From Clostridia bacterium (GTDB taxonomy: Bacteria; Bacillota; Clostridia; TANB77; CAG-508): a DNA stretch of 64,000 nucleotides. Location: contig JAXJYD010000026.1 in assembly GCA_036307105.1 (NCBI GenBank), positions 2 through 64,001 on the forward strand, in the 5' to 3' direction. The notes under the pieces were generated by a model. It saw only the letters and a program-made list of their open reading frames with translations. It searched no databases and was not told where the DNA came from. Below, piece by piece: positions 30,807 to 48,577 of the stretch (position 1 is its first letter; each line of letters starts with the position of its first letter). A program made the translations under genes and the position numbers.

Positions 30807-30840
30807 TTTATTGCAAGTTGTTTGAATAATGTGTAATTTG

Positions 30841-30882
30841 TCACAAAAGTCGTTTGACTTTTGTGATTTTTAATGTTACAAT
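30841..30882 (+). promoter_or_regulatory. Promoter overlapped by a perfect 11-bp palindrome
   Basis: TCACAAAAGTC (30841-30851) / GACTTTTGTGA (30856-30866). TTGACT 30854-30859, 17-nt spacer, TACAAT 30877-30882. Confidence 0.55.
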
Positions 30883-30917
30883 ATAAGTGTAATCTAGAAA
30901 CAGAGGAGTGATGTATA

Positions 30918-32220
30918 ATGTATAGAAATCAAATTGAAAAACTTATAGAATGGAAAAATAATAAAAATAAAAAACCATTAATTATAAGAGGTGCTAGGCA
31001 AGTTGGAAAAACATGGCTTATGAAAGAATTTGGAGAAAAATACTATAAAAATTTTGCTTATATAAATTTTGATAGAAATACAAGAATGGAACAACTTTTT
31101 TCTGGTGATATGAATATAGAAAGAATAATACAAGGTTTAAAACTTGAATCTGGAGTTAATATAAATTCAAGTGATACACTAATTATTTTTGACGAAGTTC
31201 AAGAAGTTCCAAATGCATTAACATCTTTAAAATATTTTTATGAAAATGCACCTGAATATAATATTATTTCTGCAGGATCATTACTTCGGAATTGCAATGC
31301 ATAGTGGAACATCATTTCCAGTTGGAAAAGTAGATTTTTTAGATTTATTTCCATTAAATTTCTTTGAATTTCTTAATGCACTTGGTGAAGAAGAGTTGGT
31401 TAAACTCATAAAATCAAATGACTTTGAACTTATAAAAGTATTTTCTGGTAAATTTATAGATTACTTAAAACAATATTTGTATATAGGTGGAATGCCAGAA
31501 GTAGTTAATGCTTTTATTCAAAACAAAGATTATAATGAAGTAAGAGAAATTCAAAATAAATTATTAATTGACTATGAACAAGATTTTTCAAAACATGCTC
31601 CTAATAACATTGTTCCAAGAATTCGTGCTTTATGGAATAATATTCCTACACAGCTTTCAAAAGAAAATAAAAAATTCATTTATGGTTTGGTAAAAGAGGG
31701 GGCAAGAGCTAGAGAATATGAAACAGCTTTAGCATGGCTTATTGATTGTGGCTTGATATATCAAATAAATAGAGTAAATGACTGTAAAATTCCACTTGCT
31801 GCATATCAAGATTTTAACTCATTTAAATTATATTTATTAGACCCAGGATTATTATGTGCTATGGCAAAAATAGATAGTAGTTCAATATTAGAAGGAAATG
31901 ATTTATTAGTAGAATTTAAAGGGTCATTAACAGAACAATTTGTATTAACTGAATTAAAATCCAATACAGATGTACCTATATTTTATTGGTCAGCTGATAA
32001 AGGAATAGCTGAATTAGATTATATTATTCAATTAGGAAAAAATAATATTCCAATAGAAGTAAAATCGAGCGAAAATTTACAAGCTAAAAGTCTAAAAACA
32101 TTTGTAGAAAAATATAACACAAAAATAAATATTAGAACTTCTTTATCTGATTATCGAAAAGAAAAATGGCTAACTAATATTCCTTTATATATAATTGGAA
32201 ATATTAAAAATATTATATAA
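30918..32220 (+). pseudogene. AAA_14/DUF4143-family ATPase, reading frame broken once at CGG 31287-31289
   Basis: GARQVGKTW Walker A. ORF 30918-31304 ends ...SAGSLLRNCNA*. The +1 frame from 31288 gives GIAMHSGTSFPVGKVDFLDLFPLNFFEF, the expected continuation of this family. Confidence 0.8.
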
Positions 32221-32248
32221 TATTTTATAATCTGATAAATATATTAAA

Positions 32249-32540
32249 GATGGTGGGAACATATTTATGGTGTTCAAATATTAGCCATAAGAATTTTAAA
32301 ATTGCAAATTTTTTATTATTTTGTAAAAAACTATAATTTAAATATCTTATAAAAAATATATAATAAAAAATTAAATATAAATGATTAACTTATATAAAAA
32401 AAGCTAATTTAATAAGAAATATGATTTAATTGAATGTTACTTTAATCCATAATAATGATATAGGAGAGCAGGGGTATATGGATCAAAACAATCAAAAAAG
32501 AAATATATAACATTGCACAAAATCAAAGTATCCGTGCGTT
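32249..32540 (+). repeat. Left-array terminus repeat unit plus dif-like site copy S2
   Basis: G-box GATGGTGGGAAC, AAAATTGCAAATTTT palindrome, an A+T-rich tract, a conserved ATAGGAGAGCAGGGGTATATGGAT block, then CATTGCACAAAA-TCAAAG-TATCCGTGCGTT (32511-32540). Confidence 0.65.
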
Positions 32541-32570
32541 CAAATTTATAAAAATAAGCCTAGTAGTTAG

Positions 32571-32671
32571 TTGTAATTATCAGTCTTTTGTTATATAATA
32601 AGGAAACATTCGTAATATTACAATATTACGAACAAGTTAGAAAACCGTAGATTTGTGAAATCTACGGTTTT
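32571..32671 (+). promoter_or_regulatory. Promoter and two-hairpin leader upstream of the recombinase gene
   Basis: TTGTAA 32571-32576, 17-nt spacer, TATAAT 32594-32599. Palindrome TTCGTAATATT/AATATTACGAA (32609-32632). Terminator-like AAAACCGTAGATTT-gtg-AAATCTACGGTTTT (32641-32671). Confidence 0.55.
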
Positions 32672-32714
32672 CGGTTTATAATAGATTCATTCTTATTGAT
32701 TGGAGGAATGAATT

Positions 32715-33677
32715 ATGAACGAAAGTGTTATAAAAACTATAAGTTCAGAAATGAACAGATATTTGAATAATTATCAAATGTCCAAACTAAATGAAGTTCT
32801 TTACAAAAGATTAGATTTAGATGAAGAAGAAATATCTAATGAAGAATACTTAAATAAATTTATTAACTCTAAAAGATTAGAAGGATGTTCAAATTTAACA
32901 TTAAAGAATTATACTATTCATGTTAGTAAGTTATTTAATTATTTAAATAAAGATATTAGAACAATGGATACAGAAGATTTAAGGAATTATCTATCATACT
33001 ATCAAAGTAAAAACAATTGTAATAGTTTAACCATTGATGGAGTTAGAAGATCATTATCAAGTTTCTTTACTTTTTTAGAAGTTGAAGATTATATTGTAAA
33101 AAGTCCTGTAAGACGAATACATAAAATAAAAACAGATATTTTAGTTAAAGAAACATATTCAGATGAAGTATTAGAAAAATTAAGGAATAATTGTAGTAAT
33201 ATCAGAAATCTTGCAATTATAGATTTGTTAGCTTCATCAGGTGTAAGAATAAGTGAACTTGTTAATCTTAATATTGAAGATATTAATTTTGAAGAAAAAT
33301 CATGTGTAGTATTTGGAAAAGGCAAAAAGATGAGAGAGGTTTATTTTGATGGTAAAACTAAGTTACATTTACAAGAATATTTAAATAGTAGAAGAGACTC
33401 AAACAATGCATTGTTTGTAAGTTTATATAAGCCATATGAAAAGTTAAAAAGTCGAGGTATAGAATTAATGCTTCAAAGACTAGGTGAAAAAAATGGGATT
33501 AGTAAAGTTCATCCTCACAAATTCAGGAGAACATTAGCTACTCGTGCAATAGATAAAGGAATGCCAATCGAGCAAGTACAACATTTGCTCGGGCATACAA
33601 AAATAGAAACAACACTTCTTTATGCAATGGTTAATCAAAATAATGTTAAAAATTCGCATAGGAAATATATCTCTTGA
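32715..33677 (+). CDS. Tyrosine recombinase (XerD-like, 320 aa)
   Basis: SAM-like N-terminal domain (NLTLKNYTIHVSKLFNYL). Catalytic ASSGVRISE (R), HPHKFRRTLAT (H-x-x-R), LGHTKIETTLLYA (H..Y). Confidence 0.88.
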   Translation: MNESVIKTISSEMNRYLNNYQMSKLNEVLYKRLDLDEEEISNEEYLNKFINSKRLEGCSNLTLKNYTIHVSKLFNYLNKDIRTMDTEDLRNYLSYYQSKNNCNSLTIDGVRRSLSSFFTFLEVEDYIVKSPVRRIHKIKTDILVKETYSDEVLEKLRNNCSNIRNLAIIDLLASSGVRISELVNLNIEDINFEEKSCVVFGKGKKMREVYFDGKTKLHLQEYLNSRRDSNNALFVSLYKPYEKLKSRGIELMLQRLGEKNGISKVHPHKFRRTLATRAIDKGMPIEQVQHLLGHTKIETTLLYAMVNQNNVKNSHRKYIS

Positions 33678-33979
33678 TATAAATTATACATATAAAATAA
33701 TACAGAAAATGAGTTTAAATAAACAAATGTTTATCTCATTTTTTGTCCTTATAGATTATGAAATCAGTGGAAACAATTAAAGTCCTATCATTAATTTGAA
33801 GAGTAACTGAATTAGTTTTATAATGTGATAAATCAATCACATATTGTTCTAAACCTGTAGAATTGTTATTTCCACCAATATACTTGTAATTACTTTAATT
33901 CCATCAAGTATATCAAAAATATCTTTTCTTGGGACTATCTTTGTGTTATAATGATAGTAATTAAGAAAGGTGGGTAATT

Positions 33980-34420
33980 ATGAGGATAGTAATACAAAGA
34001 GTTGACCAAGCTAGTGTTAATGTAGATAGTAATGTAGTAGGAAAAATAGGCAAAGGATTTGTAGTTTTATTAGGAATTAAGAATACAGATACATATAAAG
34101 ATGCTGATTATTTAGTAAGGAAATTAACAAATTTAAGAGTATTTATGGATGATAAAGATAAAATGAATTTATCTTTATTAGATGTAGAAGGTGAATTATT
34201 AATTATTTCCCAATTTACGTTATATGGCGAATGTAAAAAAAGTGGAAACAGACCGTCGTTTTCAGAAGTAGCAAAGCCTAATATTGCAATACCACTATAT
34301 GAATATTTTATAAATGAATGCAAAAAGGTAATTCCTATAGTTCAAACAGGAACTTTTGGAGCTCATATGAAAGTTGATTTAATAAATGATGGACCTGTTA
34401 CAATTATTATTGATTCATAA
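33980..34420 (+). CDS. dtd: D-aminoacyl-tRNA deacylase
   Basis: MRIVIQRV...SQFTLYG...GNRPSF...GPVTIIIDS. Confidence 0.92.
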   Translation: MRIVIQRVDQASVNVDSNVVGKIGKGFVVLLGIKNTDTYKDADYLVRKLTNLRVFMDDKDKMNLSLLDVEGELLIISQFTLYGECKKSGNRPSFSEVAKPNIAIPLYEYFINECKKVIPIVQTGTFGAHMKVDLINDGPVTIIIDS

Positions 34421-34447
34421 AAAATAGAATTAGGAGGAAATAAAAAA

Positions 34448-35530
34448 ATGGAGTTAAAAATATCGAATTTAATAAAAAATGAAGAATTAAATAATTATGC
34501 AAATGGAAAAAAATTAAATTACAAAACATTAATTGACTGCTCTGATGGAAAAAACCCATATGGATGCTCAAAAAACATATTACAAATTTTAAATAAAATA
34601 AATATGGAAGATATAACTGACTATTCCCATGATAATAAATTTAAAGAAGAAATTGCTAAATATTGGAATATAAAAACTAATAATATAGTTTTATATGATG
34701 GTTCTATTGAAGGATTGTGTGCAGTAAACTTATTATTTAGAACAGCAAATCCAAAATTATTAACCTTTATACCACATTTCCCGGATTTTAGTAATTATTC
34801 TAAAATTATGGGATATGAACACAAAAAAATTTTATTAAATCGTGAGAATAACTATAAATATGATATTGATGAAATGATAAGAAATATTGATGATTTCGTA
34901 AATGTAATTTATATTGATACACCCAATAACCCAACAGGGCAGATATTAAACAAAGTAGAGGCAATTAAGTTAATTGAATATGCGGAGAAAAGAGGGATAG
35001 GAGTAATAATAGATGAAGCATATGGAGATTATGTCGCAAAGGAAGAATCATGTATTGATCTTGTAAATAAATATAACAATTTATTAGTTATAAGAACATT
35101 TTCAAAAGGATTTGGTTTAGCCGGTTTAAGGGCAGGATATGTGATATCTAACGAAAAAGTATGTAGTTATCTTGAAAAAATATCTAGTCCGTATAATATA
35201 TCTTTGATATCAAAAAAATTAGCTATTAGTGCAATCAAAGATATTAAATTTTTAGAAGATTGTATGAAGAAAATAGAAAAGAATAAAATAGAATTATCAA
35301 AAGCAATTCAAGGTAAATTAAGAATGGCAGTTACTCATAAAAGTGCATCTATTTGTTTATTATATTCTGATAATGATATCGATTTATGTCAAAAATTTGC
35401 TGAATATGGAATAAAGGTATATTCAGGGAATTCTTTTGAAGGGCTGGGGAGAAATAGTGTAAGACTTAATTTACCTTGTGAAGAAAAAATGGAAAAATTA
35501 TTAGAGTTGATTAAAAAATTTGAAATATAG
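34448..35530 (+). CDS. Class I/II PLP aminotransferase (HisC/CobD-like)
   Basis: NPNNPTGQ and RTFSKGFGLAGLRAGY (PLP lysine) motifs. Confidence 0.8.
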   Translation: MELKISNLIKNEELNNYANGKKLNYKTLIDCSDGKNPYGCSKNILQILNKINMEDITDYSHDNKFKEEIAKYWNIKTNNIVLYDGSIEGLCAVNLLFRTANPKLLTFIPHFPDFSNYSKIMGYEHKKILLNRENNYKYDIDEMIRNIDDFVNVIYIDTPNNPTGQILNKVEAIKLIEYAEKRGIGVIIDEAYGDYVAKEESCIDLVNKYNNLLVIRTFSKGFGLAGLRAGYVISNEKVCSYLEKISSPYNISLISKKLAISAIKDIKFLEDCMKKIEKNKIELSKAIQGKLRMAVTHKSASICLLYSDNDIDLCQKFAEYGIKVYSGNSFEGLGRNSVRLNLPCEEKMEKLLELIKKFEI

Positions 35531-35556
35531 ACTCACGGAGAAACTACAATTTAACA

Positions 35557-35590
35557 ACTTGTTCGCACTATTTTGATTTTGCGAACAAGT
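35557..35590 (+). repeat. Perfect 10-bp stem hairpin of the modular repeat family
   Basis: ACTTGTTCGC (35557-35566) / GCGAACAAGT (35581-35590) with a 14-nt loop. Confidence 0.6.
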
Positions 35591-35922
35591 GAATAGGGAA
35601 TATAGTAAAATTTGCAATTTATGAGATAAGAACTAAAAATCTTCAAAATTGCAAATTTTTGTTATTTTGAGGAAAATTAAAAATATTAGTAAATTTTATA
35701 AATTTAGAAAAATTATTAGAAAATAAAAATCTAAGAAAAAATAAAATGAAAAAAATTTTGATAAAAAGAAAAACTTAAAAACAAAAATAAATTTAATAAT
35801 TTACAAAAAGATAAACATTTAAAAATTTATAGAAATCTAAGTGAGGGAGGTAAGAAGATACCATATTGATTGACCTAATTTCTTATATATAACATTGCAC
35901 AAAATAAAAGTTTTCGAACATT
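35591..35922 (+). repeat. Left-array terminus repeat unit plus dif-like site copy S3
   Basis: GAATAGGGAAT G-box, AAAATTGCAAATTTT, an A+T-rich tract of about 250 nt, AGTGAGGGAGGTAAGAAGATACCATATTGA block, then CATTGCACAAAA-TAAAAG-TTTTCGAACATT (35893-35922). Confidence 0.7.
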
Positions 35923-35993
35923 AGAATGTTGATATATCAATAATTATACGTTATATAATTAAAATATTGACATCGAAAAAAAACGCAAAACTA

Positions 35994-36105
35994 TTGACAA
36001 ATTCAAAAATATTATGTATAATAAGTAAAGATGTTATGAGATAATTAAATATAAAAATGCAGATATGGAAACCAAGGGAGTATTCTCTTTGATTTCCATT
36101 TTTTA
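35994..36105 (+). promoter_or_regulatory. Consensus promoter followed about 45 nt later by an intrinsic terminator (short RNA or attenuator)
   Basis: TTGACA 35994-35999, 17-nt spacer, TATAAT 36017-36022. Hairpin ATGGAAA...TTTCCAT (36065-36099) plus T6. NUDIX gene RBS follows at about 36160. Confidence 0.5.
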
Positions 36106-36171
36106 TTGTGAAGTTTTATACTGAGTAATCAAAGATTCTTTCTGGTTTCAAATATATTAAAAGGAGGAACA

Positions 36172-36609
36172 ATGAATATGAGTGAAAGACATGTTTCAAA
36201 AATAGTAGTTGATTTACTACTAGAAAGGAGGAATTCGACAACAGGAAAAACAGAAATTCTAATGATGTTAGCAGAGTATTTAGACAATCAATATGATTTA
36301 CCAGGAGGACATTTAGAACCAGGAGAAGATTTATATGATGCAATGATAAGAGAAGCAAAAGAAGAAATAGGAATTACGATTAAAAGAGAAAATATGCAAA
36401 TAGTACATATTTATCACCATTTTAGTAAAGATGTATTAAAATTTGTGTTTAAAGTAGCAAATTACAGTGGTGAAATAAAAAATTTAGAGCCTGAAAAATG
36501 TAAAGAAATAAGATGGATAGACATTAATAATTTGCCAGAAAATACAATTAAGGGTATTAAAAATGAGATAATAAACATTTACAATGATGTATATTACAGT
36601 AAAAATTAA
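36172..36609 (+). CDS. NUDIX hydrolase
   Basis: Nudix box GGHLEPGEDLYDAMIREAKEEIGI. Confidence 0.8.
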   Translation: MNMSERHVSKIVVDLLLERRNSTTGKTEILMMLAEYLDNQYDLPGGHLEPGEDLYDAMIREAKEEIGITIKRENMQIVHIYHHFSKDVLKFVFKVANYSGEIKNLEPEKCKEIRWIDINNLPENTIKGIKNEIINIYNDVYYSKN

Positions 36610-36623
36610 AGGAGGATAATAAA

Positions 36624-36881
36624 ATGATAGATTTACATATACATACTACTTGTTCAGATGGGCAATTAACTGTAGAACAGTTACTAGAAAAAGCAAATAA
36701 TGCAAGACTATCTGTAATTTCATTTTGTGATCACAATGTTCTAGGAGCATATCAAATATTAGATAATATGGATTTAAACAAATATAGAACAAAAATTATA
36801 ACAGGTATAGAATTCGATTTTGTATTTAATCATAAAGACTTTCACATGTTGGGATATGATTTTGAGAAGAATACTGTTTAA
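36624..36881 (+). pseudogene. 3'-truncated PHP-domain phosphoesterase (first ~80 codons only)
   Basis: MIDLHIHTTCSDG...SFCDHNVLGAY aligns with the N-terminus of the full-length PHP protein at 47686-48567, then stops. Confidence 0.7.
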
Positions 36882-37000
36882 AAAATTATACACAGATAGA
36901 AATTCATGAAAGGTAAATTATTATTAATATAATAAAGAGCTAAATATATTAATTTTTGTATATTTAGCTTTTGAACTATTATAAATTGATATATAAGGAA

Positions 37001-37305
37001 ATAGGGGAATAGTAGATAAAAATTTCAAAAAATACAAACTTTTTGGTTTTTTTATAAAAATAAATTTATAAAATCTAAAATAAAAAAATTTATAAATAAA
37101 AATTAATGAAATATAAGGTTTATAAAAAAGTTTAACAAATATATAATTAACGAGATTAAAAATCTAATTTAATAATTAAATATGATTTAATTGGAAACTA
37201 CTTTAAATCCAGCAAAAACAACATAGAAGAGACAGAGGGAAATAGATCAAAAGTAGTATAAAAAGGAATATATAACATTGCACAAAATAAAAGTGTCCGT
37301 GCATT
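37001..37305 (+). repeat. Left-array terminus repeat unit plus dif-like site copy S4
   Basis: ATAGGGGAATAG G-box, an A+T-rich tract, a block shared with 32400-32510, then CATTGCACAAAA-TAAAAG-TGTCCGTGCATT (37276-37305). Confidence 0.65.
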
Positions 37306-37335
37306 CATATTTATACAATTAAAGCTGATAGTTTG

Positions 37336-37364
37336 TTGTAATTATCAGTCTTTTGTTATATAAT
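37336..37364 (+). promoter_or_regulatory. sigmaA-type promoter (same module as 32571-32599)
   Basis: TTGTAA 37336-37341, 17-nt spacer, TATAAT 37359-37364. The surrounding GTTGTAATTATCAGTCTTTTGTTATATAAT is identical to the copy upstream of the recombinase gene. Confidence 0.6.
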
Positions 37365-37439
37365 GAGAAAAATCGTAATATAGTAATATTGCAAATAAGT
37401 TTGATAAAGAAAAATAGTAATTTGAAAGGAGATTAAATT

Positions 37440-38099
37440 ATGGGACTATTTAATAAAAAAGAAGATAGAAAAGAGGGAGAAAAGTCTGAGTTTTATGCTA
37501 CTGGTTGGGATGCAATCGACGAAGAAGCCAAAAGAATATATCCAGGTCAAGATAATCCAAAACATTATGCAGCTTTGATTAAATGGAGATTGGGTGGACC
37601 AGATCCACTTGATGGTATAAGTGTATATGATGGTGGAGATTATTGGCATTTCGTAACTTACGGATTATCAGAACTATATGAAAAAGAAAGCGAAAATAAA
37701 GAGTGGAGTGGTTACGGGATGGAATTTACTTTTAAATTAAAAAAAGACAACTATGTAGATGAAGAACAAGAAATAAAGTGTATTTGTGGAGTATTACAGC
37801 AAATTGCACGAATTACTTTTAAAAATGGTGAAATATTTAATCCATTTGAATATCTATATACAGGACAAACAGTAGGTATTGATTCAAGACAAATTTCAAA
37901 TATAACAGGATTCATAACAATACCAGATACAAAATTCCAAACATTAAATACGAAAAATGGTAGGGTTGATTTTGTTGAATTTATTGGTGCTACAAATAAT
38001 GAATTATTAGCACTTAAAAATAAAGAATTAGATGTAAAAACTTTGTATAGAAAAATAGGCAGTGATGTGACTGATTATAATAGAAAATCAGTTATATAA
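37440..38099 (+). CDS. Suppressor-of-fused (SUFU)-like domain protein
   Basis: YPGQDNPKHYAALIKWRLGGPDPLDGISVYDGGDYWHFVTYGLSELYEKES...GYGMEFTFKL is typical of bacterial SUFU-like proteins. Confidence 0.75.
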   Translation: MGLFNKKEDRKEGEKSEFYATGWDAIDEEAKRIYPGQDNPKHYAALIKWRLGGPDPLDGISVYDGGDYWHFVTYGLSELYEKESENKEWSGYGMEFTFKLKKDNYVDEEQEIKCICGVLQQIARITFKNGEIFNPFEYLYTGQTVGIDSRQISNITGFITIPDTKFQTLNTKNGRVDFVEFIGATNNELLALKNKELDVKTLYRKIGSDVTDYNRKSVI

Positions 38100-38124
38100 A
38101 TTACAAGTTATTGCTGAATTAAAT

Positions 38125-38153
38125 TTGAAAAAAAAGTAGTATTATGCTATAAT
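38125..38153 (+). promoter_or_regulatory. sigmaA-type promoter of the riboswitch-controlled gene
   Basis: TTGAAA 38125-38130, 17-nt spacer, TATAAT 38148-38153. Confidence 0.6.
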
Positions 38154-38164
38154 ATTAGTAGATA

Positions 38165-38250
38165 TGTAAAAAGCAAAATAAACGAAAGTTTATGACGCAA
38201 AGCCAATGGTCTAAAGGTTATATAATAACCCACGATAGCAGGTTGCACAG
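38165..38250 (+). promoter_or_regulatory. c-di-GMP-I (GEMM-I)-like riboswitch
   Basis: GCAAAAT-AAAC-GAAAG-TTTAT-GACGCAAAGCC-AATGG-TCTAAAGG...CC-CAC-GATAGCAGGTTGC follows the GGCAAACC..GAAAG..GACGCAAAGCC..CTAAA..GGTAGC.GGGTTACC order of GEMM-I. The 3' end abuts the GAGGAG RBS. Confidence 0.65.
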
Positions 38251-38266
38251 AAGAGGAGTGGTTGTT

Positions 38267-38935
38267 ATGAATAAAAAGAAAGTATTAAAAATAGTATTAT
38301 TGATTATTTTAGTTATATTAATTGTTTTTATGGTAATAACAATTAGAAGAATGATAATAATTAAAGCCTTAAGTGAAAAAGTATCAAAATATGTAACTGA
38401 TGATAATCATTATGAAAAAATTATAAACAATTCTATTGAAACAGAAACTATTACAGAGTATTATTGTAGAGGAAATAACGCAGTAATGTTTTTGACAACA
38501 ACTACAAAAAATACTGGGGAGAAAAGAAAACTTACTCAATATTTTAAAGGCGACAAATGCAATACTTATATTGAAACGGATAAAGATAAGATTGCAATAT
38601 TGGACTCCAACGGAATTCCAAGTAAATTAACAATATGGGGATTAGATTATAATGATAGTTTATGGAACTTGTTTTATTTAGCAGTAAAAACACCTATAAG
38701 AAGTGTAAAATATAATAATAAAGAATGTTATTTCTTGAATTCACCTATTGCAAGAAATTGCTATATGGAAAAGGATACAGGGTTAATACTTAAAGCAATT
38801 GATGGACAAATAGAAGATGCCAATGGAAATGAAACAGATATAATAGTTGAGTATAATTATGAATTTGGTAATGTTGATGAGAGTATATTTGAAGAGCCAA
38901 ATATTAGCGAGTATAAAGTGCAAGAAAATCAATAA
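38267..38935 (+). CDS. Hypothetical membrane-anchored/exported protein
   Basis: MNKKKVLKIVLLIILVILIVFMVITI signal-anchor. GGAG RBS before ATG 38267. The upstream extension of the tracked ORF overlaps the riboswitch. Confidence 0.6.
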   Translation: MNKKKVLKIVLLIILVILIVFMVITIRRMIIIKALSEKVSKYVTDDNHYEKIINNSIETETITEYYCRGNNAVMFLTTTTKNTGEKRKLTQYFKGDKCNTYIETDKDKIAILDSNGIPSKLTIWGLDYNDSLWNLFYLAVKTPIRSVKYNNKECYFLNSPIARNCYMEKDTGLILKAIDGQIEDANGNETDIIVEYNYEFGNVDESIFEEPNISEYKVQENQ

Positions 38936-38943
38936 TTATTATG

Positions 38944-38973
38944 AGAAGATGATGTAGTAATCATCTTCTTTTT
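38944..38973 (+). terminator. Intrinsic terminator
   Basis: AGAAGATGA (38944-38952) / TCATCTTCT (38961-38969) plus TTTT. Confidence 0.75.
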
Positions 38974-39006
38974 AAAAAGATACAATAGAAATAATTAGTA
39001 GATATT

Positions 39007-39138
39007 CAGAAGGTTTGGATATTCAGAACAAGTAAAATATTCTAACTTGTCAACAATATTTTGGTATTGTTAACAATTATTAGAATGAAAAATTACAAGT
39101 TATTGAGATGTACAGAAATTTTATTTTTACGAACAAAG
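39007..39138 (+). repeat. Modular intergenic hairpin repeat
   Basis: CAGAAGGTTTGGATATTCAGAACAAGT, CAATATTTTGGTATTGTTAACAA and AATTACAAGTTATTGAGATGT modules, collinear with 9597-9735 and 11661-11737. Confidence 0.65.
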
Positions 39139-39160
39139 TAATTAATGAATTAGTAGTTTT

Positions 39161-39473
39161 GGAGGTAGGGGATTAAAACCTTCAAAATTGCAATTTTTTT
39201 GCTATTTTTATAAAAATATGTAGTTTTTGAAATTTCAGAAATTTTTGTAAAAATGAAAAATTTCGAGATTTTTTAAAATTTTGAAAATAATAAAATGTAA
39301 GTAAAAATAAAAATTGGAAATTACAAAATAGAAAAGGAATATAAAATAAAAAGTTGATAAAATAATTTTAAAATGTATAAAATCACAAAAACATAAAAAC
39401 TAAAAAAATTTGGAAATTAAAGTGAGGGAGGTAAGAAGATACCATATTGACTGACATAATTCGTGATATATAA
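39161..39473 (+). repeat. Innermost left-array terminus repeat unit
   Basis: GGAGGTAGGGGATT G-box. Perfect palindrome AAAATTGCAATTTT (39184-39197). An A+T-rich tract of about 220 nt. AGTGAGGGAGGTAAGAAGATACCATATTGACTGAC block. Confidence 0.7.
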
Positions 39474-39503
39474 CATTGCACAAAATCAAAGTTTTGTACA
39501 ATG
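39474..39503. other. Candidate chromosome dimer-resolution (dif-like) core site: 12-6-12 palindrome at the strand-switch point
   Basis: CATTGCACAAAA-TCAAAG-TTTTGTACAATG; the arms are reverse complements with 1 mismatch. Hand alignment of the 11-nt arms to E. coli dif GGTGCGCATAA/TTATGTTAAAT gives 15 of 22 matches. It lies between the last + gene (end 38935) and the first - gene. Confidence 0.5.
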
Positions 39504-40393
39504 AGAGATAGGAGTAAATTATAAAACCATACATATATGGTCCTACCAGCAAAATCTTGCAATTCCTTGCTATTACTAGTATTTAATCTATTTATTCTAA
39601 CAACAAACTATATTACTTTCTTATAAAACTCTCTTAAATTTGATTCTGAAGCCTCATTATTTTTAATTGTTCCTGGTTGGATTTTTTTTCATTATTGTAA
39701 CCACATATTTAAAAAAATTTATATAACTTTAGATTATTTTTATCAAAATTTCACAAATCCCCATATTTCAATATTTTGCTCAATTATTCAAACAACAAGT
39801 TATATGTCTAAAAAATAAAAACGCCTTAAAATCGATTCTCGTGCGTCGCTTTTTTAGCCTTTTTCGAGCATTTTTAATAAATGCCTAAAAATCAGCATTT
39901 TACTAAAAATTATATAATAAACACTAGATTTATAAATTAACATATCTAATCATAAACATATAACTTGTTTGATTAAATATAAAAATGTCTTAAAATCGAT
40001 TTTAGCGTGTTATAATTGCAAAATTATATTATGGATTTGTAATCTAAAATTGTATAATATTTTTATAAGAAAATTTATTAAATTAATTTATTAAATTATA
40101 ATGAAAAATTATTTACAAGCATTATTAACAAATGTTCGTTAATAAAAAATTATATAAAAAATTTAACTTTACACAAAATTTTAATTTTTAAAATTTCTGA
40201 ATCTTAATTACTAATCTTTTTTTACTTTAAATTATTTTAAGTTTAGTTTTATACTTTTAAGAAATTTTTATTTTATATAGAATAAATTTTTTATGTATTT
40301 ATTTTTCTGTTTTAAAATTTATTTTAATATTTTAAATCTCTTTTTTATACTTTTTATACATTTCTAAAAATAGCCTATTCCCCTATTCCCTAC
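39492..40393 (-). repeat. Right-array terminus repeat element B' (arm, 0.69-kb non-coding body, arm, A+T tract, G-box)
   Basis: TTTTGTACAATG at 39492 ... CTTTACACAAAA at 40167-40178, an A+T tract, then CCTATTCCCCTATTCCCTAC at 40374-40393. Internal boxes at 39631, 39821 and 39986. No ORF of 60 aa or more. Confidence 0.7.
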
Positions 40394-40431
40394 TTATTTC
40401 TTTGTATACATGAAAAAATACTATATAGCTT

Positions 40432-40746
40432 TTAAGTTATTCTTTTGCTGTGTTGAACAAAATTATTACTTAATAACTTGCCCAAACTACTTAAATTATC
40501 AATATTATTAGCTTTTGTATTAACTTGTTCAGCTTGTGATACTAAAACTTGTTCATAAGTATACTTTAACATTGATATTTTCTCTTGTTTTTGCTCATCT
40601 GTAGCATCATTACTGTTAAGCCTATATTCAAGATTATAACAATATAATTCTAATGCTCTCAAAATAAGTTCAACTTATCCATCTAATAGATTTAATTCTA
40701 CAGAATGAATTTTATTTTTATCAAATTTTCTTTCATAATCTGCCAT
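40432..40746 (-). pseudogene. Small conserved hypothetical gene with an in-frame TAA (paralogue of 51011-51297)
   Basis: MADYERKFDKNKIHSVELNLLDG*VELILRALELY... The TAA at 40677-40675 corresponds to CAA (Gln) in the paralogue. AAAGGAG RBS at about 40761. Confidence 0.6.
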
Positions 40747-40942
40747 TGTTTTATATCAACTCCTTTTTATAATAAATTATGCACAAAAAACCTCTGCTGT
40801 ATCAATTTGAACATGTCCTAATAATTCTTGAATAGTTCTAATATAGGTAATTTTGGACGCTATAAAAAATAGTATTACATTTTTTTATAATGTAACACTA
40901 TTTTTTATAATGTATCTTATTATCTTTTTAGTTATAATTTTC

Positions 40943-43579
40943 CTATAACCAATTTCCAACTTTTTTAATGTATATTTTCTTTACAATCTGAACTAAAATT
41001 ACATATAGGATAGTCAATCCTGCTACTATTAAATAATATAATGGTGGCATTATTTCAAAATGGAATGATTTAATATTATGCAATAATATTGGTGCAAATA
41101 TTGTTCCTATTATTGTAACCATTGTTAAACAAGTTAATATTGGGTTTGCTTTTGACTGTACAAAAGGTACTTTTTCAGTACGAACGAAATGAATTATCAA
41201 TGTTTCACTTATTAGACATTCAACAAACCATGCTGTTTGAAAATAACTTTCACTTACAGCTCCATTATATCCTAATATAAACCAAAATGCTAAAAACGCC
41301 AAAACATCTATTATCGAACTTACTGGTCCCATTACATTCATAAATGTTCCCAATCCTTTTGTATCCCATTTTCTTGGTTTTATTAAAAATTCCTCATCAA
41401 CATTATCATATGGTATTCCTATTTGAGAAAAATCATATAAAAAGTCTTGAATTAACATTTGAATTGGCAATAATGGTAAAAATGGTAAGAAAATACTTGC
41501 AATAAATATACTAAATACATCTCCAAAATCTGAACTTAAAGCCATTTTCATATATTTTATAATATTTCCATATACTTTTCTTCCTTCTATTACTCCATTA
41601 AATATTACTTTTAAACTTTTTTCTAATAAAATAATATCACTTGCTTCTTTAGCAATGTCTGTTGCTGTATTTACACATATTCCAACATCTGCATTATGTA
41701 GTGATGGTGCATCATTTACACCATCTCCCATATAGCCTACTACATGTCCATTTTTTCTAAGAGCCTTTATTATTCTTTCTTTTTGTAAAGGATTCATTCT
41801 AGCAAAAACATTTACTTCCTCAACCTTTTTAGCAAATTCTCCATCTGGCATCCTATCAATATCTGTACCTAATAATATTTTTGAATCTTCTATTCCTACC
41901 AAGTTACAAATATTTTCAGTGGCATATTGGTTATCTCCTGTTAAAATCTTTGTTGTTATTCCATATTCTTTTAATTTCTTTATTGTACTTTTTACTTCTT
42001 TTTTTGGTGGATCTAAAAATGCTACAAATCCTATAAATGTCATTTCTTTTTCATCATCGCTATTAAATATATCTTTTCCTCTATACTCTCTTTTTGATGC
42101 TAACGCGATTACCTGCATTCCTTGTTTTGCAAGATTTTCAGCATTTTTATTAATATTTTGTATCATTTCTTGAGTTAGCTCTTTATGTTCGCCATCTATT
42201 TTTACTTGATTACAACTTTTTAATACTTCTTCTAATGCTCCTTTAGTAATTATCCTATAATGATCATCATGTTTTACTACAATACTTACTTTTTTTCTAA
42301 TATAATCAAATGGAATTTCATCAATTTTTTCATAATTAATAACTTGTTCTTTTATTTTATGCTGAACTCCATATGTTATTACTGCTTTATCTACCAGATT
42401 TTTCATTCCAGTACTATAATAGCTATTTAAAAATGCATATTCTAATATAGATAAATCTTCTTTTCCTTCAACATTTATATATTTCTGTAATACTATCTTG
42501 TCTAATGTTAATGTTCCTGTTTTATCAGTGCATAAAACATCTATTGCACCTAAATTTTGAATTGCCTGAATGTTTTTTACTAATGTTTTTTTCTTTGCAA
42601 GAGTTTTCGTTCCTTTAGTTAAATTAACATTTACTATCATAGGCAACATTGTTGGAGTAATTCCAACAGCTACTGATAATGCAAATAGCACTGCTTCTAA
42701 TATATCTTTTCGTATAAATGCATAAATAATAAATACTGCTATTGAAACTACAACCATGTATTTTATTAATAATTTTGTAATTCCATTCATACCTTTTTCA
42801 AAATTTGTCGTTTCTCTTTTATTATCAATTTGTTTTCCCATACTTCCTAGATATGTAGAAAAACCAGTATTAATTACTATAGCTGTTGCATCTCCACTTA
42901 TTACACTTGTTCCCATTAAACATATATTTGAAATTGAAAATATTTCATTTGAGTTATTAAATTTATCTGTTTTTTCAATAGGCGCACTTTCACCTGTAAA
43001 AACAGATTGATTTAAAAACAAGTCCTTATTTTCTATAATCATTACATCAGCTGGAATAATAGAACCTGCATTTAGATGAATAATATCACCTTTTACAACT
43101 TTTTCTGTTCTTATTGTTTGTTCTTTTCCATTTCTTATAACCGTTGCCGTTGAAAACATTTCACTTTTTAATTTTCTATTGAATTTATATGTTGAATAAT
43201 TTTGGGCAAATTTTATCATAGCACTTACAAATCCAATTGCTAAAATAATAACTGTACCTAATGTATCATCACCAACAAATTTATTTATTATTGCTAAAAC
43301 AACTAAAATTAAAATAAATTTATCTTTAAATGAATTTATAAAAAAATAAAACCATGAATGTTTATCATCTTTTACAACAACATTTTCTCCATCTTCTTCT
43401 AATTTTTGTTCTGCTTCTTTATTTGTCAATCCTTTTTCAATATTAGTTTTAAGCTCTTTTATTATTTCTTGTTTTTCTTTTTGTGCAATTTTCTTATATT
43501 TTTCTAGTATTTTCTCATCATTATTACTCATTAAATTTTTATTTTTTAATTTGTTCTTTATAAAAAATAATCTAATCAA
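40943..43579 (-). CDS. mgtA: Mg2+-importing P-type ATPase (MgtA/MgtB-like)
   Basis: CTDKTGTLT phosphorylation site, TGES, MGDGVNDAPSL, 10 TM segments. TTG 43579 is 11 nt from GGAG; ATG 43531 is an alternative start. Confidence 0.88.
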   Translation of the reverse strand: MIRLFFIKNKLKNKNLMSNNDEKILEKYKKIAQKEKQEIIKELKTNIEKGLTNKEAEQKLEEDGENVVVKDDKHSWFYFFINSFKDKFILILVVLAIINKFVGDDTLGTVIILAIGFVSAMIKFAQNYSTYKFNRKLKSEMFSTATVIRNGKEQTIRTEKVVKGDIIHLNAGSIIPADVMIIENKDLFLNQSVFTGESAPIEKTDKFNNSNEIFSISNICLMGTSVISGDATAIVINTGFSTYLGSMGKQIDNKRETTNFEKGMNGITKLLIKYMVVVSIAVFIIYAFIRKDILEAVLFALSVAVGITPTMLPMIVNVNLTKGTKTLAKKKTLVKNIQAIQNLGAIDVLCTDKTGTLTLDKIVLQKYINVEGKEDLSILEYAFLNSYYSTGMKNLVDKAVITYGVQHKIKEQVINYEKIDEIPFDYIRKKVSIVVKHDDHYRIITKGALEEVLKSCNQVKIDGEHKELTQEMIQNINKNAENLAKQGMQVIALASKREYRGKDIFNSDDEKEMTFIGFVAFLDPPKKEVKSTIKKLKEYGITTKILTGDNQYATENICNLVGIEDSKILLGTDIDRMPDGEFAKKVEEVNVFARMNPLQKERIIKALRKNGHVVGYMGDGVNDAPSLHNADVGICVNTATDIAKEASDIILLEKSLKVIFNGVIEGRKVYGNIIKYMKMALSSDFGDVFSIFIASIFLPFLPLLPIQMLIQDFLYDFSQIGIPYDNVDEEFLIKPRKWDTKGLGTFMNVMGPVSSIIDVLAFLAFWFILGYNGAVSESYFQTAWFVECLISETLIIHFVRTEKVPFVQSKANPILTCLTMVTIIGTIFAPILLHNIKSFHFEIMPPLYYLIVAGLTILYVILVQIVKKIYIKKVGNWL

Positions 43580-43664
43580 TTTCTATGTATCTCCTTTTTT
43601 TATATTTTATAAAATTGTATCACTTAATATATTTTTTGTATATACTTTTTATATTTCTTTTTTC

Positions 43665-44050
43665 TCATATTACTTTGTTTTCTTCTTTTAAAAATTCACT
43701 TTCTATTTTTATATATTCTTTTAATATTGCAGTTGCCCATTTTCTAAACATTATACCACGTTTACTATTTACCCTGTATCCAACTGAAATAATCATATCA
43801 AGATTATAATATTGAACTTTATAATTCTTTCCATCTTCAGCAGTATGCTCAAAAAATGAGCATACTGAATTTTCTTCTAGTTCGCCATCTCTATAAATAT
43901 TTTGTATATGTCTAGTAATTGTTCTTCTGTCTTTATCAAATAATTCTGCCATTTGTTTTTGTGTAAGCCACACAGTTTCATCCTTTAAGTTTACTTATAA
44001 TTTTACTCCTTGGTTTTCAAATAAAATAATTTCATTCTTTTTTTCGTCTA
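43665..44050 (-). pseudogene. RhuM-family gene remnant (in-frame stop, truncated C-terminus)
   Basis: ...EIILFENQGVKL*VNLKDETVWLTQKQMAELF...YNLDMIISVGYRVNSKRGIMFRKWAT. It lacks the C-terminal half of the family. Confidence 0.65.
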
Positions 44051-44200
44051 TAAGAACACATCCTTTTATATAAATTTAGTTCTTAATATTTTTATTAGTT
44101 CATTTAAAATTCATTATTTATAACTTGCGAACTATTGTTTTTATTATATTTGATATTTTGATATCTGTCAACAAATTTTGTGGAATTTTATTAAAAAAAT

Positions 44201-44229
44201 GTACCACCCTTTAACTTAAAAGGTGGTAC
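44201..44229. terminator. A-run/hairpin/T-run bidirectional terminator-like hairpin
   Basis: GTACCACC (44201-44208) / GGTGGTAC (44222-44229) flanked by A7 and A5. The homologous copy at 50079-50107 is at the same position relative to the repeat element. Confidence 0.55.
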
Positions 44230-44245
44230 AAAAAATAGCCCAGTA

Positions 44246-45270
44246 TCAAAGTTTTGTGCAAATAGGAGTAAGGATACAAAAATAACCAGTATGTATTGCT
44301 ACTACTGGCTTTGCTGCACGTCTATCCTACTAAAATTGCTTATTTTCCTAATTATCTAATTATTATTCTATATTATATATAATTCTTTGTAATCTGCTTT
44401 ATTACTGTGTTTTAACTTACTTTGCTTATTATCTTATTACTATTATATTATTACCTATATTATTTTCCCAAAAACCCAACGTTTTTTATTTTAAAATATA
44501 ATTTTAAATACTTATTCTAATTTGTTTTATTATTTTATTAAACAAGTTATATGTCTTCCATATAAAAGTGCCTTAAAATCGATTTTAGAGTCTCAACCTA
44601 AATAAAGCCTGAAACATCAATATTTTCAGGCAACAAACTATATGGCTAATTTTTAAAAACGCCTTAAAATCGATTCTCGTGCGTCGTTTTTTTAGCAATT
44701 TTTGAGCAAAATCCCAGTTGTTGCAATAATTACAAAGATTTATACAAATCAAAAAAAATCACATATTATTATAATAAATATGTATAAAAATTAAATAATA
44801 ATTTTATAAAAGTGTTTATATAAGAAGATTTCATTAAATATAAAATAAAGTATTTAATATTTAGAGGATTAAGTTTTATTAGTTAATTATAAAAATGTCT
44901 TAAAAACGATTCTCAGAGGTCTAGATTTATAAAAATATAATTAAATACAAAAGTTTTTGTAAAAAATTTCAAAATCAACAAATGTTCGTTTTTTAGATTT
45001 ATTAACCGAACAATTTTAAAATTTAACATTGCACAAATTTAAAATAATAAATTTTGAAATCTAATAAATTAAATCTAAAATTTCTAAAATTCAAAAAATT
45101 TAAAAATTTATAATTTTATTTTTAAAAATATTTTTTAAATTTATTTTTATTAAAAATTTTTTTACTGACTTCTTCCCTTTTATTACTTTTAAAAATTTTT
45201 TAAAACTAAATATTATATTTTTAACAATTTTATTAATTATGAAATACCTCTATTCCCCCCTACTCTACCG
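44246..45270 (-). repeat. Right-array terminus repeat element C
   Basis: TCAAAG-TTTTGTGCAAAT (44246-44263), a 0.8-kb body with boxes at 44568, 44660 and 44896, CATTGCACAAAT (45027-45038), an A+T tract, CTATTCCCCCCTACTCTACCG (45250-45270). Confidence 0.7.
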
Positions 45271-45454
45271 TTTTTTATTAATAAAATAATTATACAATTT
45301 TAAATTTTCGTTCATTTTTACTTTTATCCTCGATATATAAATTATCATAGATATTTTAAGTTGCCGAATATTCTAAATCCACAATTAACATATGTTATTT
45401 ATTTAAATTAATTTGTTTAATATAATATATTCATATATTTTAGGAGGTTTAACT

Positions 45455-46129
45455 ATGAAAGTAAAAAATGCATATAAAGCTTTAATAATTTTAATGTTTA
45501 TAACAATTACAATTTCAGGCTATGAGTTTTTAACTGCACTTAAAAATTTTAATCCAAATGGTACAATTTTTGATTTTTGTAGCGGAGCGGTAGAATATAT
45601 CCCATATTTTATGATTTTCTTATTAGCACTTTTCTTAGTGCTTCCAATATCATTGTTGCTTTTTAAAGAAAACAACATCCAACTTAAATCCGCAATATTA
45701 GACAAAAAGCATTTATTTAAAGACATACTCTATGGAATTATTTTAGGACTTATATCAGAATGTATTGTTTATTTGTTTTATGTTATGCGTAATGCCGGCT
45801 CTACTTATGAACATACTATGATTTATAATAATTCTATTACATTCTACATTTTATATTTTCTTTCTTTATCACTAGTATGCGGAATATTAAAAGAATTATA
45901 TTTTAGAGGTTTTGCTAAATTCTTTTTAGCCGATATATTTGGCGAAAATTTTTCTTATCTATTAACTGCAATTTTATTTGGTATAGTGGATTGGCAAAAT
46001 ATGGGGTCTTCAGTAATTCTTGGTTTATTGTGGGGATTTGCTTATAAGAAAAATGGACGTCTTATAGTTCCAATGATAGCACACGGTTTAATAAACGCTT
46101 TAGGTATTATTGGATTGTTTATTCTTTAA
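45455..46129 (+). CDS. CPBP-family intramembrane glutamic endopeptidase (CAAX protease-like)
   Basis: KELYFRGF (EExxxR-type) and HGLINA (HxxxN) motifs, multi-TM. AGGAGG RBS before ATG 45455. Confidence 0.75.
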   Translation: MKVKNAYKALIILMFITITISGYEFLTALKNFNPNGTIFDFCSGAVEYIPYFMIFLLALFLVLPISLLLFKENNIQLKSAILDKKHLFKDILYGIILGLISECIVYLFYVMRNAGSTYEHTMIYNNSITFYILYFLSLSLVCGILKELYFRGFAKFFLADIFGENFSYLLTAILFGIVDWQNMGSSVILGLLWGFAYKKNGRLIVPMIAHGLINALGIIGLFIL

Positions 46130-46717
46130 ACTTTTTTTTATGCGGCTGAGAGATTGAGGTTCTATTCCTAGGTATGTTGCAATATCACATTGTTTTACTG
46201 TATCTATTAATTCAGGAAAATCTGTAACAAACTGCTTATATCTCTCAGTGGCATTTTTTGTCATAAATTCATTTTCACGGTAAATCTTATATCTCATCCC
46301 ACTTTCTAATGCTTTAATATAAAATTGATTCCATGTTTTATTATTATTTATTAATTCTTTTAGTTTTATAGTATCAAACAATAAAACAGTACTATCATTT
46401 ACAACTTCACATCTGTATTTTGATTCTGTAAATCCTAATAAGCTTTCATCGAAAAACATACTATATTTTGTATGGAAAAACCTTGTAATTTCTTTGCCAT
46501 CATATGTAATAAAAGAGGTTTTGATAATTCCATCCAGTATAAAGCCAGTTTGTGTTAATTCAGCTCCAATTTCGCATAATATATCTCCAGAACTATATTT
46601 GACTATATTTGCTTCTTTAATTAAAATATCAATATCCTCTAAAGTTATTTCTATATCATAGATTCTTTTTGCATCTTCAATTAATTGTGATTTAAGTAAT
46701 TTATTCATATAATCCAC
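46100..46717 (-). CDS. Crp/Fnr-family transcriptional regulator
   Basis: cNMP-binding-like N-terminal domain and a C-terminal HTH (QCDIATYLGIEPQSLSRIKK). Confidence 0.75.
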   Translation of the reverse strand: MDYMNKLLKSQLIEDAKRIYDIEITLEDIDILIKEANIVKYSSGDILCEIGAELTQTGFILDGIIKTSFITYDGKEITRFFHTKYSMFFDESLLGFTESKYRCEVVNDSTVLLFDTIKLKELINNNKTWNQFYIKALESGMRYKIYRENEFMTKNATERYKQFVTDFPELIDTVKQCDIATYLGIEPQSLSRIKKSLKNKQSNNT

Positions 46718-46793
46718 CCCTTTATCATTATATAGAAGATATTATAAAATAGCAACTGATTCATGTAATACATCTATAAAAAGGTAACTATTA

Positions 46794-47653
46794 TGAAAGT
46801 TTTGTGCAATAAAAGATAGGAACAAATATATAATACTCTAAATATGCCTCTATTCCTATATTTCAGACTATTATTGAAATATGATTTATTCCTTACTTTT
46901 AATCGTTTTATTTCTTACTTATTACTTACTATCTTAAAATAATTACTAAAATACTATCTTTATAATTATCAAATTGTATGTATTTATTTATTATTTTCTT
47001 ATAACAAATTTATATTACTTTAGTAAAAAAACATCTTAAAAGTTATTTGGCACGTTGGCTCAAAATACCCTTATATTATAGTCAACAAAACTATATGGCT
47101 AATTTTTAAAAACGGCTTAAACTCGATTCTCGTGCGTCGTCTTTTTAGCAATTTTTGGGCTAAACTCAAGTTGCTGCAATAATTACAAAAATTTATACAA
47201 ATCAATAAAAATTACATATTATTATAATAAATATGTATAAAAGTTTAAATATAATCTTATAAAAGTGTTTATATAAGAAGATTTCATTAAATGTAAAATA
47301 AAGTATTTAATATTTAGATGATTAGTTTTATTGGTTAATTATAAAAATGTCTTAAAAACGATTTTCAGAGGTCTGAATTTATAAAAATATAATTAATTTA
47401 TAAAATAATTTAAAAAATATTAATATACAAATGTTCGTTTTTTAAATTAATAAACCGAACATTTTAAAATTTAACATTGCACAAAATTTAAAATCGGATT
47501 TTTAATTTAAAATTTTCTGATTTATTTATAAACTTTCAAAATTTTTTATTTTAGATTTTATATTTTAAAAAATCAAATTTTTAAAAATTTATTTTTTTAT
47601 TAATATTTTAAATTCATAATTGTTGAAAAATCCGCTATTCCCCTACTCCACCG
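46794..47653 (-). repeat. Right-array terminus repeat element D
   Basis: TGAAAG-TTTTGTGCAATA (46794-46811), a body collinear with element C (boxes at 47032, 47113, 47348), CATTGCACAAAA (47475-47486), an A+T tract, GCTATTCCCCTACTCCACCG (47634-47653). Confidence 0.7.
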
Positions 47654-47685
47654 TTATTATAAAACTCAAAATTTATATGAATAGA

Positions 47686-48567: not shown

Positions 48568-48577
48568 ATTTTACCTC

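Follow-up and report, generated by a model that had tools for sequence, protein, structure and literature searches.

The question raised by this locus is whether a palindrome lying between two converging sets of genes, in a 64,000-nt stretch of contig JAXJYD010000026.1 from a gut member of the Clostridia (hereafter the window), is the chromosomal dif of its replicon. The first-pass annotation of the window had proposed a non-canonical dif at the terminus. This proposal is now supported by the position of the skew extremum, by conservation of the site, by its linkage to one lineage of Xer-family recombinases and by crossovers inside the site itself. We consider it likely that a Xer system of Clostridia, one that relies on a single recombinase, has its chromosomal dif in this palindrome. 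The element in question is the following.

39474..39503, no strand assigned: full dif-like core site CATTGCACAAAA-TCAAAG-TTTTGTACAATG, composed of left arm, centre TCAAAG and right arm

The site has 12-nt inverted arms with a single mismatch (C/T) around a 6-nt centre, so that the 12-6-12 layout described at first pass is present. It is surrounded by an A+T-rich non-coding gap of ~2 kb. As had been stated, the gap is bordered by the last + strand open reading frame (ORF), which ends at 38935, and by the first - strand ORFs (40432-40662 and 40943-43579), and the coding strands converge toward the site. The GC skew in 2-kb windows changed from +0.33 on the left to -0.27 on the right. When cumulative skews were calculated at single-base resolution, the maxima of G-C, purine and A-T were found at 39514, 39526 and 39554, respectively; all three lie 11-51 bp beyond the end of the palindrome, and the G-C maximum lies 11 bp beyond it. 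The skew extrema and the copy number of the site refer to the 64-kb window. A switch from + to - marks a terminus, not an origin.

Palindromy as such was unexceptional, as 11 palindromes of the 11-6-11 type (≤1 mismatch) were present in the window. The arm CATTGYACAAAA occurred 13 times at ≤1 mismatch, versus 2.64 expected, and none of 100 shuffles reached 13. These arm copies are not an ordinary repeat: they are half-site scars at cassette junctions and lone half-sites, and the full palindrome was found only once, with no dispersed full copies seen in the window. A hand count against the E. coli dif sequence gave 15 identical positions out of 22 in the arms (7 + 8), in agreement with the earlier count. 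The stated mismatch with the Bacillus-type dif also holds, in that neither Bacillus-type nor E. coli-type dif 28-mers were matched in the window even at 6 mismatches, and the canonical Firmicute dif consensus ACTTCCTAGAATATATATTATGTAAACT was unmatched there at ≤6 mismatches. A canonical dif hidden elsewhere in the window is ruled out, since no ATAA-N6-TTATGTNAA was present and no match was obtained at ≤6 mismatches. A small ORF reading across the site was rejected as well: the locus L075 (L numbers denote loci used for comparison) gives MEKQIYNIAQNKSFVQ followed by a stop, and neither frames nor starts are kept in other copies. Rfam was silent at gathering score over the 2-kb gap and returned only a spurious microRNA match (E = 0.03).

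To follow the site into other genomes, an exact-pattern scan was performed with ATTGYACAAAA-N6-TTTTGTRCAAT on one genome per species. It matched at least 119 contigs from at least 117 assemblies, nearly all from Clostridia, whereas ~4 matches are expected by chance (an estimate for uniform base composition). The matched taxa listed comprised ~20 Anaerococcus, Oscillospiraceae, Monoglobus, Ruminococcus, Peptoniphilaceae and many low-GC uncultured 'Clostridium/Clostridia' genomes. A few matches in Bacteroidaceae, Prevotella, Bacillus and Oceanospirillum lacked the skew and recombinase features and look like chance. The 22 arm bases were kept in genomes spanning 21%-64% GC, and 115 of the 117 assemblies listed carried one match each. 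Of the listed loci, 62 extended at least 1.5 kb to either side of the site; 43 of these had + skew to its left and - skew to its right, including 30 of the 36 listed loci with GC below 0.40. Fifty loci had the site at least 2 kb from both contig ends; in 12 of these the local cumulative-skew maximum was no more than 100 bp away from the site, and in 16 no more than 300 bp. Uniform placement of the maximum would put 7.5% within 300 bp. Among the matches listed, the site was conserved in many Clostridia as an approximately single-copy element at local skew switches. The full site was also present in nine IMG/VR contigs (phages or chromosomal fragments), with an xer-like gene near four of them.

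The gene most consistently associated with the site encodes a tyrosine recombinase, which is represented in the window as follows.

58341..59333, + strand: candidate cognate Xer-family recombinase, 330 aa, with Pfam Phage_integrase and a SAM-like N-terminal domain

All the catalytic residues (R175, K199/K202, H274, R277, H301, Y310) are present. The scores of the protein against the NCBIfam cut-offs were 229/335 bits for XerC, 208/330 for XerD, 200/220 for XerA and 160/267 for XerS, which places it outside these four families. The nearest Protein Data Bank chains were XerA and XerD; the XerH structure was matched more weakly (58 bits, E = 7e-15). Relatives with E <1e-30 numbered at least 7,999, and the best 120 listed were all unnamed. 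In 58 of the 119 listed loci, an orthologue of this protein (42-57% identity) was encoded next to the palindrome, which precedes the start codon by 3-135 bp, and the gene was always directed away from the site. In ten further listed loci the gene was located 0.3-6.8 kb from the palindrome. A reciprocal test, in which metagenome contigs were searched with an alignment of 58341-type proteins, gave a consistent picture. Among the protein-selected loci with at least 41% identity, 20 of 35 had an AAA-N6-8-TTT palindrome with arms of at least 10 nt within 400 bp upstream, whereas only 2 of 32 more distant relatives had one. Between lineages the arms varied (TTGCAC, TTGAAC, TTATAC, TTAGAC, TTAAAC, CGCAAC, TTTCGC, TTTCAC), and both arms were changed together. 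Such concerted variation is expected if one protein binds both arms.

Two observations concern the arrangement of gene and site in particular lineages. In L226 and L229, whose recombinases are relatives of only 36-37% identity, AGTTCCCAAA-TTTATA-TTTGGGAACG is located 35-56 bp upstream of the recombinase gene, and therefore the linked architecture may reach beyond the group with 41% identity. In Clostridium sp. CAG:343 (L012, 3534-5476), two tandem xer paralogues are directed toward the palindrome from ~1.5 kb away; the usual state in most taxa is a single xer gene directed away from the site.

The window contains a second recombinase gene.

32715..33677, + strand: XerA-like tyrosine recombinase, cargo of the cassette el2 (described below); passes the NCBIfam XerA_Arch cut-off

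It had been noted earlier that each of the two recombinase genes has a copy of the arm upstream. The copies do exist, 204 bp before 32715 and 84 bp before 58341, but the two genes are not equivalent. The 32715 recombinase was ruled out as a partner or second Xer because it is absent in L125 and L126 and has homologues without a half-site: those with 52-57% identity directly follow type I restriction hsdS genes, and their surroundings contain no half-site. We conclude that the 32715 gene is strain-variable cassette cargo, so that the arm copy upstream of it is a mere cassette boundary. Members of the same family in IMG/VR contigs (L152-L168) were likewise found directly 3' of hsdS, which suggests that the family belongs to the hsdS-shuffling recombinases. 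The cognate recombinase of the site is thus most likely the product of the 58341 gene and not of the 32715 gene.

The evidence that recombination takes place at the site comes from its surroundings. Seven further 30-nt sites, each with part of the core intact, are spread over the region between rho and xer.

29253..30602, + strand: rho, the ancestral left neighbour of dif
30777..30806, + strand: hybrid junction S1, CATTGCACAAAA-TAAAAG-TTTTCGTGCGTT, 175 bp past rho, where relatives have dif
32511..32540, + strand: hybrid junction S2, CATTGCACAAAA-TCAAAG-TATCCGTGCGTT, where strain L125 departs from the window
35893..35922, + strand: hybrid junction S3, CATTGCACAAAA-TAAAAG-TTTTCGAACATT, where L128 has a full dif
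37276..37305, + strand: hybrid junction S4, CATTGCACAAAA-TAAAAG-TGTCCGTGCATT
44234..44263, + strand: hybrid junction S5, AATAGCCCAGTA-TCAAAG-TTTTGTGCAAAT, with centre and right arm conserved
46782..46811, + strand: hybrid junction S6, AGGTAACTATTA-TGAAAG-TTTTGTGCAATA
50112..50141, + strand: hybrid junction S7, AATAGCCCAGTA-TCGATC-TTTTGTGTAAAT, from which the right half and flank of the L128 dif match

To the left of dif, S1-S4 keep the left arm and centre and differ in their right arms; to the right, S5-S7 keep the centre and right arm and differ in their left arms. One-sided hybrid sites of this kind are predicted if circular elements with one good and one degenerate attP arm recombine at dif. 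The junctions delimit two arrays.

30807..39473, + strand: left array of four cassettes with + strand genes
30807-32510, + strand: el1, split AAA_14/DUF4143 ATPase
32541-35892, + strand: el2, XerA-like recombinase, Dtd and aminotransferase
35923-37275, + strand: el3, NUDIX and PHP fragment
37306-39473, + strand: el4, SUFU-like protein, c-di-GMP riboswitch and membrane protein
39504..54460, - strand: right array, made up of units whose genes are mostly on the - strand
39504-44233, - strand: unit A, module, small ORF, P-type ATPase and RhuM fragment
44264-46781, - strand: unit B, module, Rce1-like protease and cNMP-binding regulator
46812-50111, - strand: unit C, module, PHP, AbiEii toxin and adjacent upstream ORF
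from 50142, right end undefined: unit D, module, small ORF, GNAT, dUTPase_2, NUDIX, RhuM/DUF3846 and transposase-like ORF

The left cassettes are 1.3-3.4 kb long. Each has the degenerate arm at its start and, just inside it, a promoter-like element (TTGTAA-17-TATAAT in el2 and el4, TTGACA-17-TATAAT in el3), and ends with one of two conserved non-coding tails followed by the left arm. The units on the right are ordered as right arm, covarying hairpin with a T-run on the - strand, non-coding module of ~0.7 kb and - strand cargo. The covarying hairpin to the right of the site was considered as a structured RNA and is better read as a - strand intrinsic terminator, which it looks like. No recombinase is encoded by six of the seven bounded cassettes (el1-el4 and units A-C).

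Several observations on the cargo are recorded here. The membrane-protein ORF 38192-38935 of el4 is headed by a c-di-GMP-I riboswitch (38162-38250, + strand; 71.9 bits against a gathering score of 35), and the true start of this ORF is probably the internal MNKKK. The AAA_14/DUF4143 ATPase of el1 is split into two overlapping ORFs (30918-31304 and 31240-32220), and the same split (128 aa + 307 aa) was found in every strain contig; therefore, it is an old or a programmed frameshift. The + strand ORF 53549-54442 (297 aa) has the look of a transposase fragment with no Pfam match, and several metagenome contigs of the same species break nearby.

Comparison with related genomes indicated how the arrays are built. 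In the close relatives L021, L040, L052, L083, L084 and L095, the palindrome is located 70-400 bp downstream of rho; inserts extend this spacing to 1.5-4.6 kb in L112, L090, L085, L028 and L105, and in the window the distance of dif is 8.9 kb to rho and 18.8 kb to xer. L128, which has an identical Rho, is 99.6% identical to the window over 27581-35914. After 35914 it continues with a full dif, CATTGCACAAAA-TCAATC-TTTTGTGCAAAT, the right half and flank of which match the window from S7. Therefore, the window contains an extra 14 kb (35893-50112) consisting of el3, el4, dif and units A-C, and the switches of homology between L128 and the window fall inside the 6-bp centre. L125 and L126, with the same Rho, have el1 in common with the window, followed by a different cassette with a DNA-alkylation repair gene and then a full dif. 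In L182, again with the same Rho, the unit A cargo is joined to AATAGCCCAGTA-TCAATC-R and module D, without units B and C. Cassettes common to the strains are located far from dif, and strain-specific ones adjoin it. In L149, a related species whose Xer is 84% identical, the order is rho, dif, ~9 kb of cell-wall genes, a lone arm and xer, with no cassettes, and most species have the site and the gene with no cassettes. The idea that a lone arm marks precisely where module and cargo meet was rejected, because the switches of homology in L029 and L182 were displaced by 120-330 bp, in one case into the small ORF. These displaced switches mean that homologous recombination also shuffles the units.

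As far as can be judged by sequence comparison, strands have been exchanged at the site, as shown by the half-site junctions and by the breakpoints between strains that fall in the centre. The arrays likewise show what appear to be repeated recombination events between this dif and small circular cassettes, each with one good arm, the centre and one degenerate arm. An insertion would restore a full dif on one side and leave a crippled hybrid on the other. Because each insertion rebuilds dif on one side, cassettes would stack with the newest next to dif. Those with a good left arm would gather between rho and dif, and those with a good right arm between dif and xer; such two-sided stacking would account for the distances of dif from rho and from xer in the window.

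The same arrays can be read in another way, in which the 58341-type recombinase serves a cassette-capture platform or an integrative element that uses the site for attachment and crossover, and dimers are resolved by a separate, perhaps canonical, dif and XerCD elsewhere. This is the most serious of the rival explanations, since the arrays with their precise in-site junctions show integration and excision activity, and the recombinase is not an XerC, XerD, XerS or XerA equivalog by the NCBIfam cut-offs. However, a platform of this kind gives no reason why 43 of 62 species should have the site exactly at the skew switch or why the many species without cassettes should have site and gene, and no canonical dif was found at the skew switch of the window. 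We therefore regard it as unlikely.

Arms also occur singly, and these copies bear on a possible regulatory role of the site.

58257..58268, + strand: lone left arm GATTGCACAAAA, 84 bp upstream of the xer start, followed by neither centre nor right arm
47475..47486, 45027-45038 and 50791-50802, with a degenerate copy at 40167-40178, + strand: lone left arms ending modules, each preceded by the hairpin AAATGTTCG..CGAACATTT
39825..39839, + strand: centre of the 40-nt module core AAAACGSCTTAAAATCGATTCTCGTGCGTCGYTTTTTT, with further copies at 44663, 47116 and 50464

Only the lone arm remains beside xer in the window. A lone arm is located 80-90 bp upstream of xer also in related species (L065 at 7238; L144-L151 at 9911), and such arms are kept even where dif is 9-19 kb away. 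In B. subtilis, lone XerD/XDS half-sites unload SMC at the terminus, according to work cited in PMC11894783. The lone arm upstream of xer may serve autoregulation or act as an XDS-like half-site, and by the same analogy the lone arms in general could be elements of xer autoregulation or counterparts of the B. subtilis half-sites. The modules that end with such arms (39633-40006, 44572-44913, 47116-47368 and 50272-50641) each contain three same-strand copies of CTTAAAATCGATTYT, which is a near-palindrome (TTAAAATCGATTTTAA) with 14 matches in the window versus 1.8 expected. The middle copy lies within the 40-nt core. In ~21 species belonging to the low-GC clade this core is near-invariant and lies 100-430 bp from dif. 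It had no match in Rfam, and its right half is similar to the degenerate right arms that the left cassettes carry. A family of small ORFs is located next to the dif-side modules (40432-40662 and 51050-51253 on the - strand; 5906-6106 in L106, 15521-15730 in L125 and 5598-5774 in L012). It has the pattern LRALELY.YNL.Y...KYTYEQVL.SQAEQVN with no match in Pfam or NCBIfam, and could represent an accessory factor.

These features raise the possibility that the palindrome is mainly an operator or a terminus-organising site, acting in xer autoregulation, as a fork trap or in SMC unloading, and that recombination at it is incidental. In the 58 listed loci, the site does fall within the promoter or 5' region of xer, the lone arms before xer are conserved even where dif is far off, and the half-sites of B. 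subtilis provide a precedent as cited. The half-site junctions and in-centre breakpoints nevertheless indicate strand exchange, and the conserved neighbour is a tyrosine recombinase that is catalytically intact as judged by its residues. It is thus very unlikely that regulation is the main role, and operator roles could coexist with dif function.

Some results weigh against identification of the palindrome as dif. The + to - pattern was not seen in 19 of the 62 loci, most of which are of high GC with weak skew and a few of which belong to unrelated taxa (Bacteroidaceae, Bacillus, Oceanospirillum). Two of the listed assemblies carry two copies of the site. In the window, the recombinase gene is as far as 18.8 kb from the site. 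The scan demanded near-perfect palindromes, so that the symmetry of the arms among its matches is partly by construction. Finally, the palindrome fits a loose intrinsic-terminator pattern on the - strand, with a 12-bp stem, a 6-nt loop and a T-rich tail, and it would be an ordinary bidirectional terminator if this pattern, flagged by the scan between genes converging from both sides, were taken at face value. Only three G-C pairs are present in the stem, however, and the sequence itself is kept across 21%-64% GC, while terminators conserve structure. Moreover, the separate covarying hairpin adjoining the site already resembles a - strand terminator, and half-sites persist at junctions where no hairpin can form. 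A terminator between convergent transcription units is consequently a most improbable explanation.

We thus return to the reading of the palindrome as dif. By analogy with XerH, XerS, XerA and XerL, monomers of the 58341-59333 recombinase would bind the two near-identical arms of 11-12 nt. The two dif sites of a chromosome dimer would pair at the division septum, and the resulting tetramer would exchange strands at the edges of the 6-bp centre, by which the dimer would be resolved. The asymmetric centre TCAAAG would set the direction of the site, and a translocase of the FtsK/SpoIIIE type presumably controls the reaction. When all the observations are read jointly, much of Clostridia would use an undescribed single-recombinase Xer system with a symmetric dif beside the gene. 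In one low-GC gut lineage, this dif would have become a two-sided integron-like platform with mirror-image, promoter-bearing cassettes that have conserved ends, a 0.7-kb module with three operator-like repeats and the 40-nt core, and lone half-sites that perhaps serve SMC unloading or autoregulation. We offer this combined picture only tentatively, leaning slightly against its being right in every part.

Other features of the window are noted for completeness. A block of ~130 bp occurs four times (~3100-3230, ~9600-9730, ~11640-11760 and ~39000-39130) and contains GATATTCAGAA twice and the palindrome TTGTTAACAATA-TTTTGG-TATTGTTAACAA. It looks like a shared promoter or operator, and the copy at ~39000 has no gene downstream before dif. 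A SAM riboswitch (3601-3709, + strand, 66.4 bits) is located upstream of the ORF 3821-4972. The flavoprotein (PF02441) gene at 60286-60865 on the - strand consists of two ORFs of 95 and 103 aa, and is a single 120-aa gene in some related strains.

If the identification is correct, Clostridia gain a dif site where published hidden Markov model predictions failed or fell on the wrong side of the chromosome, and one more lineage joins the few with single-recombinase Xer systems. In the study of Kono et al. in 2011, dif prediction failed in C. perfringens and C. beijerinckii, and the predictions for C. botulinum were ~175 degrees from the skew shift point (PMC3025954). The 28-mer would be a practical terminus marker for fragmented metagenome-assembled genomes, and the recombinase with its site would be a candidate tool for integrating DNA site-specifically into those gut anaerobes in which engineering is difficult. 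The dif site would also be a hot spot at which small non-phage cassettes are acquired, with toxin-antitoxin genes, transporters and regulators as cargo, and the history of strains would be readable from the arrays because the newest insertions are closest to dif. A search of full-text literature for the arm sequences and for dif/Xer in Clostridia returned only primers and unrelated papers, most subscription journals being outside its scope so that an earlier description is possible. The reviews and later papers searched contained only XerS, XerH, XerA and XerL as single-recombinase systems.

Among these, XerS/difSL of streptococci and lactococci and XerH/difH of Helicobacter and Campylobacter have a dif-like site just upstream of the gene, at the terminus (PMC1914069, PMC2731167, PMC9765430). 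The likeness lies in the single recombinase with an adjacent upstream site, which was observed here in 58 of 119 listed loci and 20 of 35 protein-selected ones. The present system differs in that it belongs to another lineage and has near-perfectly symmetric arms, and in the clade of the window the site and the gene are 9-19 kb apart. For XerL/dif of Legionellales, the distance from dif to xerL in Legionella exceeds 400 kb, and the site was recognised through the integration of LME-1, one of the integrative mobile elements exploiting Xer (IMEX) (PMC9765430). Both XerL/dif and archaeal XerA/dif share with the present system a single recombinase and long, uninterrupted inverted-repeat arms, and XerA is among the nearest structures; here, by contrast, the site sequence is unrelated, the gene is linked and the XerA score is below the cut-off. 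Canonical XerCD/dif (E. coli; CodV/RipX of B. subtilis) has the same 11-6-11 layout, inner A-run and T-run and position at the skew switch, but its XerC and XerD halves are distinct, whereas here the arms are symmetric and the recombinase scores below the XerC and XerD cut-offs.

As for the insertions, IMEX at dif (Vibrio CTX/RS1/TLC, the gonococcal genetic island, LME-1) form tandem stacks, mostly without an integrase of their own (PMC5357621, PMC9765430). The cassettes of the window resemble them in having a full dif to one side and an altered dif-like site to the other, and in being present or absent between strains with identical Rho. IMEX are, however, phages or large islands, whereas here the cassettes are of 1.3-4.7 kb and hold between one and three ordinary genes, with ends that are conserved and promoters of their own, and two mirror-image classes fill both sides of dif. 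With integron arrays they share strain variability, small size, recombination sites as boundaries and a cargo of toxin-antitoxin genes and miscellaneous enzymes. Here, in contrast, the junctions are of the dif type, the cassettes bear promoters and it is the chromosomal dif that serves as the platform; attC-type sites are absent, and so is an IntI-type integrase (42-106 bits with the integron-integrase models versus cut-offs of 265-435). Arrays of small cassettes are likewise formed by the pdif modules of Acinetobacter, in which the sites are in alternating inverted order, in contrast to the direct order here. On the whole, the system works like XerS/difSL, XerH/difH, XerL/dif and XerA/dif, and its insertions resemble IMEX arrays.

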